Origin: an uncultured Ignavibacteriaceae bacterium
Lineage (GTDB): Bacteria > Bacteroidota > Ignavibacteria > UBA10030 > BY39
Length of the DNA stretch: 64,000 bases
Assembly (NCBI GenBank): GCA_964581995.1
Contig: CAZOQB010000008.1
Coordinates: forward strand, 9,499-73,498
Direction of reading: 5' to 3'
Shown here: positions 2,913 to 62,594 of the stretch, one piece after another
Layout of the letters: each line of letters starts with the position of its first letter
How positions within the stretch are numbered: position 1 is the stretch's first letter
Position numbers and translations under genes: made by a program
Notes under the pieces: model-generated
Seen by the model: only the letters and a program-made list of their open reading frames with translations
Database searches by the model: none
Told to the model about the DNA's origin: nothing

Positions 2913-3773
2913 TTACTTAATCGGAGCTGTTTTAACTAAGATGTTATCGATTAAACGGACGTTACCGAAATGTGCCGCGAGCGAAACAAGAACCGGTTTA
3001 TCGGATATCGTTTCAACATCAGCAAGAGTTGTTTCGTCGGAGAATGCTATGTAATCCAATGTAAATTTTGGATTCGATAGAATCAAATCGGACATCTTCG
3101 ATTTGATTATTAATACAGAGCGCTCACCTTCCAGAATCATTTTGTCCGCAAGTTTAAGAGATTTATACAAAACAGCGGCTTCATCCTTCTCCCCGTTATT
3201 GATATAAACGTTCCGCGAACTCATTGCAAGCCCGTTGGCTTCGCGGACAATCGGCGCAACTATAATCTCAATATCGAAGTTTAAATCCTTAACCATTTTT
3301 TTAATTACGATTGCTTGTTGCGCATCCTTCTGTCCGAATACGGCAACATGAGGTTTAGTAATGTTAAAAAGCTTTGCAACAACTGTTGTTACGCCGCGGA
3401 AATGTGTGGGCCTAATTTGACCCTCCAGCGCCGAGGAAAAATTCTCTACATTTATGTAAGTAAGATAATTATGATTATACATCTCATTAACGCTCGGCGT
3501 GAAAACAACATCACTGCCTGCCGATTCACTCATAGCAACATCTCGATTGACATCGCGAGGATATTTTTCAAAATCTTCTTCCGGCGCAAATTGAGCCGGA
3601 TTGACAAAAACAGTGGTAATTACTATATCGGCGTGTTGCTTTACAAGGCGGATTAAACTCAAATGACCCTCGTGTAAATATCCCATCGTTGGCACGACAC
3701 CGATACGGTTACCGCTTAAGCGCATCTTCTCTGAATATTGCTGCATTTCTGTAATAGAACTTATAACCTGCAT
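2913..3773 (-). CDS. panC: Pantoate--beta-alanine ligase (pantothenate synthetase)
   Basis: 286 aa. GVVPTMGYLHEGHLSLI (HIGH-like motif) and overall PanC pattern. Confidence 0.9.
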   Translation of the reverse strand: MQVISSITEMQQYSEKMRLSGNRIGVVPTMGYLHEGHLSLIRLVKQHADIVITTVFVNPAQFAPEEDFEKYPRDVNRDVAMSESAGSDVVFTPSVNEMYNHNYLTYINVENFSSALEGQIRPTHFRGVTTVVAKLFNITKPHVAVFGQKDAQQAIVIKKMVKDLNFDIEIIVAPIVREANGLAMSSRNVYINNGEKDEAAVLYKSLKLADKMILEGERSVLIIKSKMSDLILSNPKFTLDYIAFSDETTLADVETISDKPVLVSLAAHFGNVRLIDNILVKTAPIK

Positions 3774-3850: not shown

Positions 3851-4696
3851 CTACTGCCCATACATCATCTTTAAAAGTTTTGTGACTGTCTCTTTCATCT
3901 CTTTTCTATGGACGACGATATCGACAAATCCTTTTTCGAGTTGAAACTCAGATCGTTGGAAGCCTGGCGGTAGATCTTTACCGATTGTCTGTCGAATTAC
4001 CCTTGGTCCTGCAAAACCTATTAAAGCACCGGGTTCTGCTATGTTGATATCTCCGAGCATAGCATAACTTGCAGTAACACCTCCGGTTGTCGGGTCAGTT
4101 AAGATGGAGATATACGGAATGCCCGCATCGGAAAGCTGCGCAAGCTTAGCGCTTGTTTTCGCAAGCTGCATGAGCGAAAGAGCGCCTTCCATCATACGCG
4201 CACCTCCGCTCGATGAAATTATTATCGCTGGAATTTTTTCTTTTCTTGCTTTATCAATGAGTCGGGCTATTTTTTCACCGACTACCGAACCCATACTGCC
4301 GCCGATAAAACTGAAATCCATACATGCTATTGCTGCATTAGTTCCGTTTATTTTGCCGACGCCTGTTCTAACCGCATCATTCAATCCTGATTTTGCAATC
4401 ATATCTTTGACCCTGGTTTTGTACGGCTTGGTGTCAACAAACTTGAGCGGGTCGGTTGAACGCATATTTTTATCCATTTCCTTAAAACTGCCGTCATCAA
4501 AAAGGATATTTAGATATTCTCTACTACCGATACGAAAATGAAAATTGCATTTCTGACATGTGAACAGCTGCTGCTCTAACATTGTGCGGTGAATAATTTC
4601 GCCGCAGCTTTCACATTTGGTCCATAAGCCATCCGGCACTTCTTTCTTCTTCGTTTCGGTAGCAATACTACCTTTCGACCTTTTAAACCATGCCAT
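3851..4696 (-). CDS. accD: Acetyl-CoA carboxylase carboxyltransferase subunit beta
   Basis: 281 aa. N-terminal Zn-ribbon CESCGEI..CQKCNFH followed by a carboxyltransferase domain ([14 protein letters not shown]). Confidence 0.9.
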
Positions 4697-24615: not shown

Positions 24616-25119
24616 TTATATTTTCTTTTGTGCTTTAAGAATCATGTCGATTATTTCACGAACGGCACCGTTACCGCCCTCTGCTTTGGAAATATAATCT
24701 ACGACAGACCTTACATTTTTCACTGCATTTTTAGGAGACGCACTAAAACCTACGGTTTTTAAAAGCTCGATGTCGAATTCATCATCCCCGATGAAAGCTG
24801 TTTCTTCATCTGAATATTTGTATTTCTTTTGAAATTCCCTGAAAGCAATAAGTTTATCCTCCCTGTCTTGAATGACATACTCTATTCCAAGTTTTGCCGC
24901 ACGTTTATTTACTATCGGAGATGACCTGCCGCTGATTATTCCAAAAACCATACCCATACGTTTACCGCGAACTATTCCAAAACCGTCGTGCGCGTGGAAG
25001 TTTTTGTACTCTGTTCCCTCGGAATCATAAATTATTTTTCCATCAGTTAGAACACCGTCAACATCGAGAAGGACGAGTTTAATTTTTTTTAATTTTTTGC
25101 TTAATAAATTTTTGTTCAT
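24616..25119 (-). CDS. kdsC: 3-deoxy-D-manno-octulosonate 8-phosphate phosphatase (HAD)
   Basis: 167 aa. HAD motif I LLDVDGVLTDG, KdsC size. Confidence 0.8.
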   Translation of the reverse strand: MNKNLLSKKLKKIKLVLLDVDGVLTDGKIIYDSEGTEYKNFHAHDGFGIVRGKRMGMVFGIISGRSSPIVNKRAAKLGIEYVIQDREDKLIAFREFQKKYKYSDEETAFIGDDEFDIELLKTVGFSASPKNAVKNVRSVVDYISKAEGGNGAVREIIDMILKAQKKI

Positions 25120-25928
25120 TTTTTCACTAACCTATCTATTGCGATTACCTGCTTAATCAATTCTTCAAGCAACTCCAACTTAAGCTGACTTGCTGCATCG
25201 CTGAGCGCCCGTTTTGGGTCTGGATGAGTCTCGACGAAAAGTCCGTCTATCCCAACAGCTACGCCAGCACGCGCGATCGGAAAAATAAATTCCGGTCGGC
25301 CCGACGTTTCACCCTTGCCGGCGCCGGGAAGCTGAACCGAATGTGTTGCATCTAATATTACCGGATAACCGAGTTCTCGCATAATTTGAAGCGAGCGCAT
25401 ATCAACAACGAGGTTATGGTATCCGAAAGATGTTCCGCGCTCTGTCAGCATAATTTTTTTGTTTCCGACTCTCCTAACTTTTTCAGCCTGATGTTTCATA
25501 TCCTCGGGAGCTACGAACTGTCCCTTCTTGATATTGATGACCTTGCCGGTTCTTCCAGCAGCTTGAAGCAATTCCGTTTGGCGGCATAAGAACGCCGGTA
25601 TCTGTAATACATCGGCAACCTCTGCTGCGACTCCAGCTTCAGCTTCAGTATGAATATCGGTTAATATCGGCAAGTCGAATTCTCTTTTTACCTCATCCAA
25701 TATTTTCAGCGCCTCCATTATGCCGATTGAGGAAAAAGATGTTCCGCTTGTGCGGTTAGCTTTTTTGTAAGATGCCTTAAAGATAAAAGGCATCTTGTGC
25801 TTTTTCGTGATTGCTTGAATTTTCTGTGCAATCCGTAAAGTCATCTCACGGTTTTCAACAACGCAAGGACCGGCAATTAGGACGAGTGGGTTCGGGCTGC
25901 CAATTTTTATTTCTTTTAATTTTATCAT
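25116..25928 (-). CDS. kdsA: 3-deoxy-8-phosphooctulonate synthase
   Basis: 270 aa. DAHP/KDO8P synthase TIM-barrel motifs (LIAGPCVVEN, KASYKKANRTS). Confidence 0.9.
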   Translation of the reverse strand: MIKLKEIKIGSPNPLVLIAGPCVVENREMTLRIAQKIQAITKKHKMPFIFKASYKKANRTSGTSFSSIGIMEALKILDEVKREFDLPILTDIHTEAEAGVAAEVADVLQIPAFLCRQTELLQAAGRTGKVINIKKGQFVAPEDMKHQAEKVRRVGNKKIMLTERGTSFGYHNLVVDMRSLQIMRELGYPVILDATHSVQLPGAGKGETSGRPEFIFPIARAGVAVGIDGLFVETHPDPKRALSDAASQLKLELLEELIKQVIAIDRLVKK

Positions 25929-26010
25929 AAATATTCAAAATGTTTAACTACTCAGCAGGTAAAAATATTACCCCGTATGTTAGATATTTCAGTCGATGAA
26001 CCGTGTAACT

Positions 26011-26030
26011 TGCCACAGATTCACAGATTA
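26011..26030. repeat. Left arm of 19/20-bp inverted repeat flanking the GxxExxY gene (tgccacagattcacagatta)
   Basis: Reverse complement of 26420-26439. Overlaps the stop codon of the 26028-26414 ORF. Confidence 0.8.
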
Positions 26031-26414
26031 TAGAATTACTCTTTTTATAATTAATGAATTTTCACCAAAGTTTACTATTAGCCCTAACGGACATTTAGAT
26101 ATTGCTAAATAATTTATTACCCAACTATAATGTTCATCAACTATTCCTTTCTGGGCTTTTACTTCCGATATTATTTTATCAAACACCACAAAATCAGCAA
26201 AAAAATAATGAGGAAGAATTAGTCCTTTATATTCCACTTCATATTTTTTCTCACGTTCATATGGAATTTCTTTCTTATTAAATTCATATTCAATAGCGTC
26301 TTTATAAACTATTTCCAATAAACCCTTTCCCAAAATACGGTGAACTTCCATACATATCCCAATAATTTGATAACTTTCTTTTTGTAACGGGTATTCCTTT
26401 TCTGAATATTTCAT
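26028..26414 (-). CDS. GxxExxY protein (PD-(D/E)XK nuclease-fold family)
   Basis: 128 aa. Family-typical motifs incl. GKGLLEIVYKDA, LPHYFFADFVV and a conserved C-terminal region. Confidence 0.8.
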   Translation of the reverse strand: MKYSEKEYPLQKESYQIIGICMEVHRILGKGLLEIVYKDAIEYEFNKKEIPYEREKKYEVEYKGLILPHYFFADFVVFDKIISEVKAQKGIVDEHYSWVINYLAISKCPLGLIVNFGENSLIIKRVIL

Positions 26415-26419
26415 AAATT

Positions 26420-26439
26420 TAATCTGTGAATCTGTGGCG
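26420..26439. repeat. Right arm of inverted repeat (taatctgtgaatctgtggcg)
   Basis: Begins 6 nt upstream of the GxxExxY start codon. 19/20 match to rc of 26011-26030. Confidence 0.8.
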
Positions 26440-26462
26440 TTTGATTTTTGCTGTTTATATAG

Positions 26463-27995
26463 TTACCAAAATGTTTTTGTAGCCTGCACTGAATTATTTT
26501 GGAGCACACCTTCAGATTTTGCAATTATCGTGGCTACTGCAGCATCGCCCGAAACATTTACAACAGTGCGGCACATATCTAAAAATCTATCTACACCTAA
26601 TATCAAAGCAATTCCTTCTTCCGGTATGTTTACAGACCTCAGAACAATAATTAACATCACAATACCGACGCCGGGAACGGGTGCAGTTCCGATCGATGCC
26701 AAGAGCGCCGTTAGTAAAATAATTAATTGCTGTGAGATGTGCAATTCGACGCCGTAAACCTGAGCGATGAACACCGCCGCAACCGCCTGATACATGGCAG
26801 TGCCATCCATATTCACTGTTGCGCCTAATGGTAAAACGAAACTAGTAATTTTTTTCGGCACACCTAAATTTTGTTCACAGCATTCCATATTTACCGGAAG
26901 TGTTGCAGCACTGGAACTGGATGTAAATGCTATCAACATTACTTCCCTAATTCCTTTGAAAAATTTTACTGGGTTCATGCCTGCAAAAACCCTTACGAAT
27001 GAACCCAAGACGATAAACTGATGAATCAGCAGTCCGATGATGAGTGTTGCCGCATACCAGAAAAGTGTTTGCAAAATATCGAAACCGAATTCGCTGACCG
27101 TCGCAGCGATGAGTGCAAAAACTCCGAGCGGTGCAATTTTCATTATGTAATCAACCATCTTGATCATCATATCGCTGAAACCGTCGAAAAATTTTATAAC
27201 AGGTTCCGATTTTTCTTTACGGATTGCCGTGAGTGTAATTCCAACAATCAAAGCAAAGAAAACAATTTGCAGCATCTCGGCATTCGCTAAAGCCGAGATT
27301 GGGTTTGTCGGAACAATGTTGATAATTGTGTCAATAATATTAAGATCAACTGTCTCTTGAATCTTCGATTGAATGTTGGGCGCAAACTCGACTAACAGTT
27401 TTTCGCGTGCTTCTTCCGAGAGTCTTTCGCCGGGTCTGATAACATTCGATAGTGTCAAACCAATTGTGATTGCAATTGAAATCAGAACAATGTACATCGT
27501 GAGCATCTTTGCGCCGATTTTCCCAACTGTCTTGATGTTCCCCAAACTCGACGCGCCCACAATTAACGAAGCCAGTACGAGCGGAATTGCGATGAACATT
27601 AATAACCGGATAAAGATGGTACCGACCGGCTTTATATATAGAGGGAGCGTTTTTACCTTCTCAACCTTTTTAATATTCTCGAAGTAGTGAGGAGGCGTAA
27701 CGAGAACAATCGACTTTGCTTTGTCGGCGATACTTAACGCTTGAAAATAATTAAGAAACTTAATCTGGTCATTGGGACCGAATGTTGCTTTAACTATTCG
27801 GCTTTCAACATCAGAAATTTCAATCTTCTCCCAGTTCTTGATTGTTGTGGATTTTTCTATCCCGGCATCTTTATGCGTGATAATCAGTTCATATTTGCTG
27901 ACGTTTAGGACTGCGCCGAAGATTGCACCAAATAATAAACCCAATAATATTTTGTGGTGAAGTTTAAGCTTCTTCAAACCCGAAAAGATTGACAT
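26463..27995 (-). CDS. Dicarboxylate/amino acid:cation symporter (DAACS/GltP family) with an unusual ~90-aa insertion after TM1
   Basis: 510 aa. Conserved transport-domain motifs SSSAATLP and GDAAVA (family-typical). Hydrophilic insert KDAGIEKSTTIKNWEKIEISD...KTLPLYIKP between the first two TMs. Confidence 0.8.
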   Translation of the reverse strand: MSIFSGLKKLKLHHKILLGLLFGAIFGAVLNVSKYELIITHKDAGIEKSTTIKNWEKIEISDVESRIVKATFGPNDQIKFLNYFQALSIADKAKSIVLVTPPHYFENIKKVEKVKTLPLYIKPVGTIFIRLLMFIAIPLVLASLIVGASSLGNIKTVGKIGAKMLTMYIVLISIAITIGLTLSNVIRPGERLSEEAREKLLVEFAPNIQSKIQETVDLNIIDTIINIVPTNPISALANAEMLQIVFFALIVGITLTAIRKEKSEPVIKFFDGFSDMMIKMVDYIMKIAPLGVFALIAATVSEFGFDILQTLFWYAATLIIGLLIHQFIVLGSFVRVFAGMNPVKFFKGIREVMLIAFTSSSSAATLPVNMECCEQNLGVPKKITSFVLPLGATVNMDGTAMYQAVAAVFIAQVYGVELHISQQLIILLTALLASIGTAPVPGVGIVMLIIVLRSVNIPEEGIALILGVDRFLDMCRTVVNVSGDAAVATIIAKSEGVLQNNSVQATKTFW

Positions 27996-60281: not shown

Positions 60282-61313
60282 ATGACTTTATTTAAAACTT
60301 GCGCCATACTTTTTCTTATCTTAACTTTTTCCTCCTGCCGTGAAGTGAACCTTTCTGAATCTTTAAACACACCTCCAGGGGAACCTTCTAATCCAATTCC
60401 CGCTGATAAAGAAATCGGAGTTGGGCCAACTCCAACTCTAAATTGGATTAGCACAGACCCGGATATTGGAGATAGTATTTTTTTTGATATTTATTTCGGA
60501 GGACAAAATCCTCCAGAATCACTTGTTGCTGCAAATTGGAAATTAAATTCCTACCACATCTTCGGGCTCGATTCCAACAAAACTTATTTTTGGAAAATTG
60601 TTGCCAAAGATAATCACGGTGGAGTTACAGAAAGTAAAGTCTGGAGGTTTACTACATATCCAAGTATTCCCGTAAACGGACTGATCGCTTATTATCCATT
60701 CGAAGGTAATGCAAACGATTCAAGCGGAAATGGAAACAACGGAATTCTAAAAGGTAATTTTGAATTTGTAAACAGCATAAAAAATCAGGGCATTCGATTA
60801 ATCGCAGAAACCGGTTCGGATAGTTTAGGCGGACACGTTCTACTCCCGAATTTCTATTTTAAATCGATGAGCAGTTTCTCGTATTCGCTCTGGATATACG
60901 AAGACTTACTTTTAGGGGATGAATTTTACATTTTTATCAAAGATAATCCACATGCTGAAGATTATGCGGGAATTTTCCGCTCTAAAAGTATGAGCTATAT
61001 CGACTTTCAAGTTGGAGCTAACTCACAAAATCTGCCGTTGACGGTAAATTATCCATCGAACTTTAAAAATCATTATATCCATTACTGTTTAGTGTCCGAC
61101 AACGACACATTAAAGATGTTCATCAATGGAGCTTTCATAAAACAAAAATATCAGCCCGCAATTGTGGATGGAGCTTACTCAGCGATTGCTCGGCATTGGG
61201 TCGGCAACATTACTTACACCCGATTCACAGGAATTATCGATGAAGTGCGATTTTATAACCGGGCTTTGACTGATGTAGAGGTGAAAGCGTTGTATTTTGA
61301 ACCAGGTTTGTAG
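60282..61313 (+). CDS. Lipoprotein with FN3-like domain and LamG-like (concanavalin A-like lectin) domain
   Basis: 343 aa. Signal plus Cys (LTFSSC). FN3-like (PADKEIGVGPTPTLNWISTDPD...TYFWKIVAKDNHGG). LamG_3-like motif GLIAYYPFEGNANDSSGNGNNG and C-terminal IDEVRFYNRALTDVEV. Confidence 0.7.
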   Translation: MTLFKTCAILFLILTFSSCREVNLSESLNTPPGEPSNPIPADKEIGVGPTPTLNWISTDPDIGDSIFFDIYFGGQNPPESLVAANWKLNSYHIFGLDSNKTYFWKIVAKDNHGGVTESKVWRFTTYPSIPVNGLIAYYPFEGNANDSSGNGNNGILKGNFEFVNSIKNQGIRLIAETGSDSLGGHVLLPNFYFKSMSSFSYSLWIYEDLLLGDEFYIFIKDNPHAEDYAGIFRSKSMSYIDFQVGANSQNLPLTVNYPSNFKNHYIHYCLVSDNDTLKMFINGAFIKQKYQPAIVDGAYSAIARHWVGNITYTRFTGIIDEVRFYNRALTDVEVKALYFEPGL

Positions 61314-61637
61314 CAAGATGGAAAATTCGAGAACAAAAATTTACTTCGCGATCTTTGCCCAATGGTGATCGAGTCTTTGTAATAAGTCAATAAATGGAAC
61401 TCAACCCCTATCTGAGTTCAGGTATAATTCGAGGTTGACCAAAAAGGCATTTGTGAACCTTCGTGACTTGGTGACTTCGTGGCAATGAGTTCATTTAGTG
61501 TTAGTAAATTATATTTTTGCCACAAAGTCCCGAAGGCACAAAGCTGTACAATGAATAAATTTACTTTTTGGTCATCTCCGTCGGGGGATGAGTTCGAATA
61601 AAAAAAAATCAGCACAATAATTATAGGAGGAACTACA

Positions 61638-62594
61638 ATGAAAAAATTCACACATGCCTGGTTGGCTTTCAGGGCAATCAAAAGGTTAGAGGAGACAAAG
61701 TTCACAAAAACTGAGGATAAAGATACAGTAAAAGCGCTTATTAAATTCTTTAAAAACCACAAAGATGATGTTCTTCAGGGCGCCTGGTATCCTGATGACG
61801 TTATCAAGGATATGGCTTCAAGCCATGTACTCAAAATCTCACCGTCAACCGATGGCAATAACAGGTTTTGCGCACTACCTTCAACCTCTCTAATCTATAA
61901 ACATGGAAAGAAATCGCCGCTTTACAATAAACCTTTTACAACCGACAAGGATACAAACCTGCCAAATCGTTGCGAGGCTTTATCTCATTCGATTGTGGAT
62001 AATCTAAAAATACAGCAAAGCGAGAATAAAGGTTCGCCGGTTTCGCCATCGGGGAATCACATCGCACTAAGAATGTTTATGCTAAGCCATTACATAGCGG
62101 ACGCGCACATGCCTCTTCACTGCGACAGCCGATCATTTGCAAAAGGATTTGAGCTGCACGATGCAATCGAAAAATCCTGGGACGAAATAATCAAGAAACA
62201 TTTCATGATTGACAAAGACAATGATAGATTTTTCTACGACCCTGACGGTTATCCCCTTCGGGATTCGAAACAGGACGCGGATTATTTATCCTCTTTCCTT
62301 CACCAAGTTGACAAAGAGATTTCAAAAAGAGATTTCATTGTCGGTTATGGAGAAAACAACAACAACGTTTTCGAATTCATGACCGCAGTATGCCAGTTTT
62401 CTTATTTACTCTCCTTCAGCTTCATACCTGAGAACCAAGCCACATATTCTATCAAGAGCGATAACTGGAATAAGTTGGGCACTATTTCTTTTGAGGATTT
62501 ATCCATTGCCTCTTTTGCCGATGCAATCGATTCCATCTCTCGAATTTGGTTTAGGATATGGAGAAGATATTTAGACTGGAAAACGAAAAAATAA
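61638..62594 (+). CDS. Zinc-dependent phospholipase C / P1-nuclease superfamily protein, apparently cytoplasmic
   Basis: 318 aa. N-terminal HAWLAFRAIKRL resembles the PLC motif SHLWIVNRAI. SHYIADAHMPLHCD resembles the H-Y-L-G-D-x-x-Q-P-x-H zinc-ligand motif. No signal peptide. Confidence 0.45.
   Translation: MKKFTHAWLAFRAIKRLEETKFTKTEDKDTVKALIKFFKNHKDDVLQGAWYPDDVIKDMASSHVLKISPSTDGNNRFCALPSTSLIYKHGKKSPLYNKPFTTDKDTNLPNRCEALSHSIVDNLKIQQSENKGSPVSPSGNHIALRMFMLSHYIADAHMPLHCDSRSFAKGFELHDAIEKSWDEIIKKHFMIDKDNDRFFYDPDGYPLRDSKQDADYLSSFLHQVDKEISKRDFIVGYGENNNNVFEFMTAVCQFSYLLSFSFIPENQATYSIKSDNWNKLGTISFEDLSIASFADAIDSISRIWFRIWRRYLDWKTKK

Follow-up and report, generated by a model that had tools for sequence, protein, structure and literature searches.

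A GxxExxY nuclease gene between selected heptamer arms: a mobile cassette at a symporter–kdsA junction in an Ignavibacteriaceae bacterium

Why should a small gene of a very large protein family be enclosed, from start codon to stop codon, by the two arms of a perfect inverted repeat? The question is raised by a 64,000-nucleotide (nt) stretch of DNA (the window) from an uncultured Ignavibacteriaceae bacterium (contig CAZOQB010000008.1 of assembly GCA_964581995.1, positions 9,499 to 73,498), in which an earlier note, made from the sequence and its open reading frames (ORFs), had seen a GxxExxY gene bracketed in this way and had proposed either a minimal mobile cassette with terminal inverted repeats or a whole-gene mRNA hairpin. 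We find that the cassette is a discrete, mobile unit with an intact, promoterless GxxExxY gene, that its arms are under selection, specific to each gene subfamily and dispersed also without a gene, and that the 19-nt repeat is an inner, selected part of the cassette and not the transposition end of the insertion in the window. As to what the arms do, we put at roughly one in two the probability that the nuclease recognises its own arms through their heptamer arrays, the whole being a PD-(D/E)XK counterpart of the REPtrons and TIRtrons discussed below.

The inner arms, at 26012-26030 (GCCACAGATTCACAGATTA) and 26420-26438 (TAATCTGTGAATCTGTGGC), are complementary at 19/19 positions and lie 389 nt apart; the twentieth position of the repeat (26011 t / 26439 g) is unpaired. 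They form the sole perfect inverted repeat of at least 16 nt within 3 kb in the whole window, and the arm motif has no other match in the 64 kb at up to three mismatches (chance expectation 0.01 matches; two copies in 0/100 shuffles). That the repeat arose by chance or through faulty assembly is an idea with nothing in its favour and deserves almost no credence, since dozens of independent assemblies, as well as finished replicons of isolates, contain the same repeat. The enclosure described in the earlier note is therefore real: the repeat is perfect over 19 nt, the PF13366 gene within it is intact, and one arm does overlap the stop codon (the TAA at 26028-26030 forms the first 3 nt of the arm 26012-26030, an overlap kept in about 40 loci). 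The other arm ends 5 nt, not 6 nt, upstream of the start codon. The remark that the arms hold essentially no extra sequence is true of the inner cassette (about 430 bp) and untrue of the 523-bp unit (25944-26466) in which it was inserted, the outer ends of which lie 68 nt (25944) and 28 nt (26466) beyond the inner arms. The parts of the unit, in window coordinates, are these:

25936..25943, CAAAATGT on the + strand: target duplication on the kdsA side, identical to 26467-26474.
25944..25959, gene strand CCTGCTGAGTAGTTAA: outer terminal inverted repeat (TIR), gene-downstream, a good match to the consensus GTAACTACTCAGCA.
25960..26011: 52-nt spacer between outer end and inner arm, common to loci L001 and L002 and missing from most other loci.
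26012..26030, gene strand TAATCTGTGAATCTGTGGC: gene-downstream inner arm, containing the TAA stop.
26028..26414, minus strand: GxxExxY / PDDEXK_3 nuclease gene of 128 amino acids (aa), with no space for a promoter of its own.
26420..26438, gene strand GCCACAGATTCACAGATTA, which is GC plus two copies of CACAGATT: gene-upstream inner arm, ending 5 nt before the ATG.
26439..26450, gene strand CAAAAATCAAAC: A-rich 12-nt spacer between inner arm and outer end.
26451..26466, gene strand GTAACTATATAAACAG: outer terminal inverted repeat, gene-upstream, degenerate, its GTAA giving the symporter stop.
26467..26474, CAAAATGT: target duplication on the symporter side, inside the 3' end of the symporter ORF.

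Is the bracket peculiar to this locus? A protein search gave over 3,900 relatives, among them over 120 distinct clusters, formed at 90% identity, with identities of 82-100%, and a scan of one genome per species gave 80 loci, from Bacteroidota, Ignavibacteriota, Chitinophagaceae and four Methylococcales metagenome-assembled genomes (MAGs; the taxon names of loci are the labels in MAG records), with up to three copies per MAG. The homologues occupy about 78 unrelated contexts, L002 being the only locus with the neighbours seen in the window. A bracketing inverted repeat (score of at least 12) is present at 60 of 76 homologous loci (median score 16), against 0 of 456 control positions inside the same loci, scored identically (median 7, maximum 11), and in an alignment of 12 loci the similarity does not extend beyond the outer edge of the arms. 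Three of five distant homologues on isolate replicons are bracketed likewise: in Sphingomonas parapaucimobilis (29% identity) by a 25-nt repeat at 92% with GC-rich CGCGAAG units, in Bernardetia by a 28-nt repeat at 86% with CACAGAG units, and in Treponema saccharophilum by a 16-nt repeat at 88%; the homologues in Persicobacter and on a Fusobacteria plasmid have no clear bracketing repeat. In L039, a paralogue of only 31% identity lies on the same contig at a distance of 1.4 kb; it is bracketed by a 37-nt repeat of its own (84% complementarity, TGCCACTAAATCACGAAAACACAAAAATCCACAAAAA) and belongs to a subfamily of 120 members with an arm type of its own. Paralogues thus do have analogous flanking repeats, the check that the earlier note had proposed, with a different arm sequence in each subfamily.

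In this second, 142-aa subfamily (proteins P0241-P0360; L039 5670-5710), the called start overlaps the outer arm edge (A-TGCCAC), and in the great majority of the 120 proteins the arm is read in frame as MPxNHxNTKxHxK, a few having extra upstream residues; judged from the sequences, this extension may be translated or may be a gene-calling artefact. A 94%-identical cassette also occurs on a 3.6-kb contig labelled as a Thermoplasmata archaeon (L004, JBBABA010000037.1), for which a binning error is more likely than archaeal carriage.

The arms of all subfamilies follow one plan, a (T)GCCAC cap and then two to four tandem heptamers resembling CACNNAT, which are CACAGAT, CACGAAT/CACTAAT or CACAAAA according to subfamily, and CGCGAAG in high-GC Sphingomonas. 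The arm of the main subfamily is GC followed by CACAGATT twice; distant variants have three heptamers at 9-10 nt spacing (CACAGAT / CACTGAT), and in an Ignavibacteria subfamily the gene has on either side a complete local hairpin made of CACGAAT / CACTAAT arms (hairpin-gene-hairpin). Pairwise identity across 31 gap-free loci is 93% in the arms and 78% in the coding sequence (89% at codon positions 1 and 2, 57% at position 3), which indicates old lineages, purifying selection on the protein and stronger constraint on the arms. Arm-to-arm mismatches (n = 60) comprise 34 A:A or T:T oppositions at fixed sites, for example at the fourth heptamer base, with G:T 8 times and A:C 10 times, and positions 9, 15 and 17 of the arms vary in a pair-breaking manner. 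Across 42 arm pairs, 87% of cells pair and double changes are found at seven pairs, the covariation score being 0.066 against 0.048 when shuffled (1 of 500 shuffles reached 0.066). By their substitution pattern, then, the arms are conserved in sequence first and in pairing second, an order more readily expected if a protein recognises each arm than if the arms serve purely as a stem.

How did the cassette come to its present site? It lies between a DAHP_synth_1/KdsA-type gene (25116-25928) and a gene for an SDF symporter (26463-27995), both oriented like the GxxExxY gene, and in relatives with symporter and kdsA genes 90-96% identical at the nucleotide level this junction is empty, with an 11-nt spacer in L222-L224 and overlapping genes in L225-L227. 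More distant relatives are empty (L083, L084) or hold a remnant only (L081). Removal of the unit and one CAAAATGT copy yields a junction that is colinear with the empty ones in L222 and L225, and the reconstructed pre-insertion symporter ends in ...ACA TTT TGA, with 6 nt left before the ATG of kdsA; once the site is occupied, the GTAA of the element provides the new symporter stop (TGG TAA). The cassettes of the window and of L002 are 94-100% identical in nucleotide sequence (kdsA about 70%), and mean GC content is 30% in cassettes and 39% in their flanks, the cassette being lower in every locus (28% against 51% on a Methylococcales contig). At another site, Sphingomonas paeninsulae has fabD directly followed by fabG, without a cassette. 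A co-conversion tract, considered for the raised identity between the window and L002 in the 3' part of the symporter gene, was dropped because the same rise is seen against the empty-site relatives, and so reflects gene conservation.

Insertion between kdsA and the symporter gene, and a mobile-cassette view supported by dispersed paralogues, had both been suggested from the window, and both are upheld: paralogues with repeats exist and relatives lack the cassette at this junction, the opposite on each count of what would have spoken against mobility. It was wrong, however, to take the 19-nt repeat for the terminal inverted repeats, since the true ends are the outer ones, which are of the ISBst12/IS66 type (consensus GTAACTACTCAGCA; GTAAC...GTTAC; pattern GT(A/G)ACT(A/G)CTCAGCA, starting GTAA) with an 8-bp duplication. 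In the window and its closest relatives, the outer inverted repeat reads GTAACTAC(T/C)(T/C)AGCAG ... CTGCTGAGTAGTTAC; for comparison, ISDge4, of the ISBst12 group in the IS66 family, has TIRs GTGACTACTCAGCA / GTAACTGCTCAGCA and an 8-bp direct repeat (PMC12898284). The same outer ends recur in L001 (15 nt at 93%) and L021 (11 nt at 100%). Duplications of 8 bp at outer ends are present in L001 (AAAACAAG, 8/8), L011 (8/8 with a 1-nt register shift), L003 (a T8 run) and L021 (7/8), and there is none in L007, L010 and L112. No transposase is encoded in the 523-bp unit, the sole ORF of which is the GxxExxY gene, and no full-length ISBst12-type insertion sequence (IS) with these arms was found among the loci examined or in plasmid records. 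From its sequence, the window copy looks as if it arrived by trans-mobilisation of a miniature, non-autonomous ISBst12-type transposon carrying the cassette. Outer ends are present in a minority of loci, and distant members, in three phyla, have no GTAAC ends around them and lie with host start or stop codons about 10-30 nt from the arms; this implies that the inner arms are intrinsic to the cassette and that the outer shell is a clade-specific vehicle. At the same symporter|kdsA spacer, L085 (4566-4712) has a different 145-nt insert with palindromic segments of its own, and small elements apparently land at this junction repeatedly.

The arms are found also without the gene. A motif scan of metagenome contigs, confined to exact matches, gave at least 80 loci, of which 80 (470 kb) were examined. 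Among the matches listed, a GxxExxY homologue stands beside the motif at about 9 of the 80 loci, and about 40 of the 80 are solo hairpins (arm, AT-rich loop of 8-25 nt, arm) with unrelated flanks; arms around 60-230 nt of non-coding sequence were also seen. These dispersed hairpins were observed in metagenome contigs and near genes at other loci, not as copies of the main motif in the 64-kb window. Most cassettes and solo hairpins have A-rich sequence on the left and AAnTTTT on the right, and across 83 elements no target duplication of 2-5 bp adjoins the inner arms beyond chance. Deletion derivatives with only the 3' end of the gene between the arms (L091, L138 and, of the paralogue type, L081 5621-5734) indicate that at least some of the short forms are derived from cassettes, and variant hairpins cluster beside variant genes (L074, L076, L206). 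Arms also form same-orientation tandem arrays in L016 (1-270 and 661-830), L012 (1-207) and L076 (3707-4776), on both sides of the gene, which thus lies between direct and not inverted copies; their period is 32/41 nt with a 105-nt super-repeat, and L076 has hairpin units of about 90 nt. The 32/41-nt arrays of L016 and L012 are not CRISPR arrays, their 'spacers' being themselves repeated.

Several further arrangements of these hairpins may be recorded here. L041 (495-2060) has four related non-coding units of about 210 nt around the gene, each with the same bracketing inverted repeat; they have the appearance of non-autonomous derivatives that cluster locally and share a different interior. 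In L164, two main-type R-loop-F hairpins (3715-3758 and 4187-4233), each with an A-tract before and a T-tract after, bracket an unrelated gene for a predicted membrane protein of 100 aa, so hairpins are able to bracket other small genes and resemble bidirectional terminators. Gene-less composites, in which ISBst12-like ends (GGTAACTCGCAAAAAATA... or GTAACTATTCCGCA...) surround a GCCACAGATT hairpin, occur in L100, L113, L127, L128, L147, L112 (271-524) and L186 (4122-4285), none of these with a clear 8-bp duplication. A third arm variant forms an R-loop-F hairpin in the window itself, at 61451-61551 (…TTCGTGACTTGGTGACTTCGTGGC - 35 nt - GCCACAAAGTCCCGAAGGCACAAAG…; core 16 nt, 88%), in the spacer between the gene for a Laminin_G_3 protein (60282-61313) and an unassigned ORF at 61638-62594, without a GxxExxY gene nearby.

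How might the enclosed gene be expressed? Cassettes occupy short gaps between genes within operons; they are oriented like both neighbours at 52 loci and opposed to both at one, and all four isolate homologues with annotated neighbours lie between co-oriented genes; in S. parapaucimobilis (L220, NZ_CP155749.1, 482837-483265) the cassette, in sense orientation, separates fabD from fabG, with acpP and fabF further downstream. A scan of the window cassette found no sigma-70-like promoter and no terminator-like site (Bacteroidota-type promoters lie outside the scan), and expression by operon read-through is the simplest reading. When the window transcript is folded, the arm stem closes the ORF in both the minimum-free-energy and the centroid structure (z = -3.0). 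An intrinsic terminator was rejected: there is no terminator-like site, and cassettes lie upstream of essential operon genes such as fabG-acpP-fabF. A search of Rfam over the region gave only a sub-threshold match to tp2 (E = 1.2), and no rRNA match.

The product of the gene matches PF13366 (PDDEXK_3; E 2.6e-32, 112.1 bits, cut-off 22) and TIGR04256 (GxxExxY; E 2e-36, 124.9 bits, cut-off 35), and has no paralogue in the window by tblastn. Three residues, E34 (in GxxExxY), D74 and K86, never vary in either subfamily; E84 never varies in the main subfamily and is conserved at 90% or more when the two are taken together. A single-sequence AlphaFold model was unusable (predicted local distance difference test score, pLDDT, 39) and was replaced by an alignment-based one (pLDDT 89), the best fold match of which in the PDB is Cas4 SSO0001 (E 3.6e-5), followed by lambda-exonuclease-type nucleases, MGME1 and the Holliday-junction resolvase Hjc (root-mean-square deviation 3.3 Å). 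With its E...D...ExK motif and predicted nuclease-like fold, the protein is, as modelled, a member of the PD-(D/E)XK superfamily, in which such a motif is carried on an alpha-beta-beta-beta-alpha-beta core. A sequence search of the PDB gave nothing significant, the top profile match being to the catalytic core only of T7 endonuclease I (E = 0.34). PDDEXK_3 is the sole Pfam match, with none to an HUH Y1 transposase; no family matched among either the PADLOC (anti-phage defence) or the PHROG (phage) models; and there is no sign of phage carriage, two pattern scans of IMG/VR having found no relative and the motif being in only nine viral contigs.

If the nuclease does recognise its own arms, the following scheme may be envisaged. 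It would be made at a low level from operon read-through, and would bind the heptamer arrays either in duplex DNA or in a fold-back hairpin of single-stranded DNA; cutting at or near the GCCAC border would then propagate or maintain both the cassette and its gene-less hairpin relatives, and in the transcript the arms would pair, close the ORF and probably throttle translation. We are more doubtful about a broader proposal, that GxxExxY proteins in general serve a hitherto unrecognised class of hairpin repeats as its dedicated enzymes, and that the cassette, with two arrays of heptamer binding sites for its nuclease, is a ~430-bp autonomous mobile or homing unit with a mechanism unrelated to HUH or DDE transposition; this seems to us rather unlikely. 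Several observations weigh against recognition of the arms by the nuclease. About 16 of the 76 loci, and two of the five isolate homologues (Persicobacter, Fusobacteria), have no clear bracketing repeat, and the gene-to-hairpin ratio is a rough one, coming from exact matches only, among the matches listed. Without a duplication at its arms, the inner cassette lacks a classical transposition signature, and the insertion route that is documented, through outer ends with an 8-bp duplication, requires a DDE transposase and not the GxxExxY nuclease. ISBst12-type ends, moreover, adjoin arms of two different types, so that the arms could belong to that family of miniature transposons, and the lack of a second arm-motif copy in the window means that there has been no local proliferation. 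Finally, the abutment of the arms on start and stop codons and the 52:1 excess of sense orientation are equally well or better explained by a role in RNA.

Could the element, then, act as RNA? The arms would in that case pair in the read-through transcript as a stem of 19-28 bp around the ORF, hiding the start region and allowing only co-transcriptional translation, and the stem might also be an RNase III site at which the cassette RNA is cut out of the operon mRNA, the nuclease being unrelated to the arms and spread being due to other vehicles, such as an ISBst12-type shell or homologous recombination. Such a role would suit the predicted closing stem, the position of the arms (5 nt before the ATG, and at the stop) kept in about 40 loci, the absence of any internal promoter that we could see, the sense orientation inside operons that include the essential fabD|fabG, the seven positions with pairing-keeping double changes and their covariation above the shuffled level, and an insertion documented as occurring through outer DDE-type ends. 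Yet G:U-compatible mismatches are not in excess over A:C (8 versus 10), and the commonest changes (A:A and T:T at positions 6, 12 and 14) disrupt pairing; nor does a stem explain tandem heptamers at 8-10 nt spacing and 93% arm conservation, or the common gene-less hairpins, same-orientation arrays and R-loop-F hairpins, and no Rfam family matches. We regard a purely RNA-level element as unlikely, although it is the strongest of the rivals to recognition by the nuclease. What survives of the whole-gene mRNA hairpin in the earlier note is its prediction by folding and its fit to sense orientation in operons; the substitution pattern, with no G:U bias and with A:A or T:T at fixed sites, gives it no support. 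Such a hairpin may be a secondary function of the arms.

It might be supposed instead that the hairpins came first, as independent repeats like the repetitive extragenic palindromic (REP) sequences or miniature inverted-repeat transposable elements (MITEs), and that GxxExxY is a homing-type gene copied into a hairpin loop, much as IS1397 targets the loops of REP sequences; the bracket would then come from the target, and the GCCAC-heptamer hairpins could be sub-terminal parts of ISBst12-type miniature transposons, or terminator-like. Gene-less hairpins do outnumber cassettes among the matches listed, many solo copies have an A-tract/stem/T-tract form, ISBst12-type ends adjoin two arm types at a similar short distance (about 27-39 nt between the starts of TIR and arm), TIR-hairpin-TIR units without a gene exist (L112, L100, L113, L127, L128, L147), and no target duplication is found at the inner arms. 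The arms follow the gene subfamily, however, and not the host, two paralogues on one contig having different arms; distant members in three phyla have arms without GTAAC ends; deletion derivatives keep gene 3' ends; and most cassettes and solo hairpins are without outer ends. This order of events seems to us quite improbable.

Recognition of the arms by the nuclease would give the cassette its closest parallel in REPtrons and TIRtrons, in which genes for RAYTs (REP-associated tyrosine transposases) are flanked by REP sequences or TIRs (PMC3733652). As in a REPtron, a single small nuclease-type gene is flanked on either side by an inverted copy of a short palindromic repeat, one whose sequence goes with the gene clade and which is also found as gene-less hairpins, here in metagenome contigs and near genes at other loci. 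In contrast to a REPtron, the protein is a 128-aa PD-(D/E)XK nuclease and not an HUH Y1 (IS200/IS605-like) transposase, the repeats are GCCAC-capped tandem heptamers and not GTAG-tagged stems, the genes are multi-copy per genome and spread across phyla whereas RAYTs are single-copy and vertically inherited, and the gene is promoterless, in sense within operons, and without local proliferation in the window. The outer ends resemble those of ISDge4 in their GTAACTA(C/T)...CAGC form, in the 8-bp direct duplication and in the existence of occupied and empty sites (PMC12898284); unlike an IS of the ISBst12/IS66 type, the unit is only 523 bp long, lacks a DDE transposase and carries as cargo a GxxExxY cassette that has an inner inverted repeat, and most members of the GxxExxY family are without such ends.

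Other known systems share single features with the cassette. The intervening sequences (IVSs) of 23S rRNA genes in Leptospira and Coxiella have S23p (four-helix-bundle) ORFs and are excised by RNase III: there too, a small ORF of a multi-copy family lies in stem-forming inverted repeats of a host transcript, but the transcript is 23S rRNA and not the mRNA of an operon between protein-coding genes, and the protein family is different. Integron cassettes likewise have promoterless small ORFs, co-oriented with external transcription, and imperfect, hairpin-forming palindromes, but these form a single 3' attC, not arms on both sides of the ORF, and the present cassettes have no integrase, attI or array of unrelated genes. 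In Correia/NEMIS and other MITEs, the TIRs are transcribed into hairpins sensitive to RNase III, and in IS10 read-through transcripts are subject to 'fold-back inhibition'. The likeness lies in terminal repeats that, by pairing in read-through RNA, can hold down expression between or downstream of them; unlike Correia elements, which are non-coding, and IS10, which has a DDE transposase and its own promoter, the cassette has a promoterless nuclease gene.

What follows for the GxxExxY family? It is very large (8,831 clusters at 50% identity with E of 1e-3 or less in public data), with its function listed as 'Unknown' under PF13366/TIGR04256 (PMC3424549), and a full-text search found no description linking it to flanking repeats, in a searchable literature that is incomplete. 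Discrete cassettes, arms that co-evolve with the gene and abundant gene-less hairpins now suggest for it a concrete, testable role, and make it a candidate enzyme for a class of little-characterised palindromic repeats from those AT-rich phyla in which RAYTs provide no explanation. If the broader proposal above were true, the unit would be smaller than any known insertion sequence, and would have seeded REP-like hairpins across Bacteroidota, Ignavibacteriota, Proteobacteria and Spirochaetes. The cassette may also be seen as a selfish gene that lies in sense orientation inside essential operons (fab, kds) and can ride an IS66-type miniature transposon across phyla. Cassettes change the ends of neighbouring genes, as with the symporter stop codon supplied by the element, and are likely to mislead gene callers, the arm being called as an N-terminal extension in one subfamily.

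The cassettes of one Ignavibacteriae lineage have themselves been entered by a second palindromic element of about 36 nt (CCCGCCTGCC-N16-GGCGGGCAGG), found at L002 3960-3995, L003 ~3965-4000 and 4395-4430, and L081 4696-4735. Its insertion splits the ATG in L002, where it also recreates a GTG start; in L003 it interrupts the downstream arm as well, and in L081 it is the sole content between the outer 8 nt of each arm.

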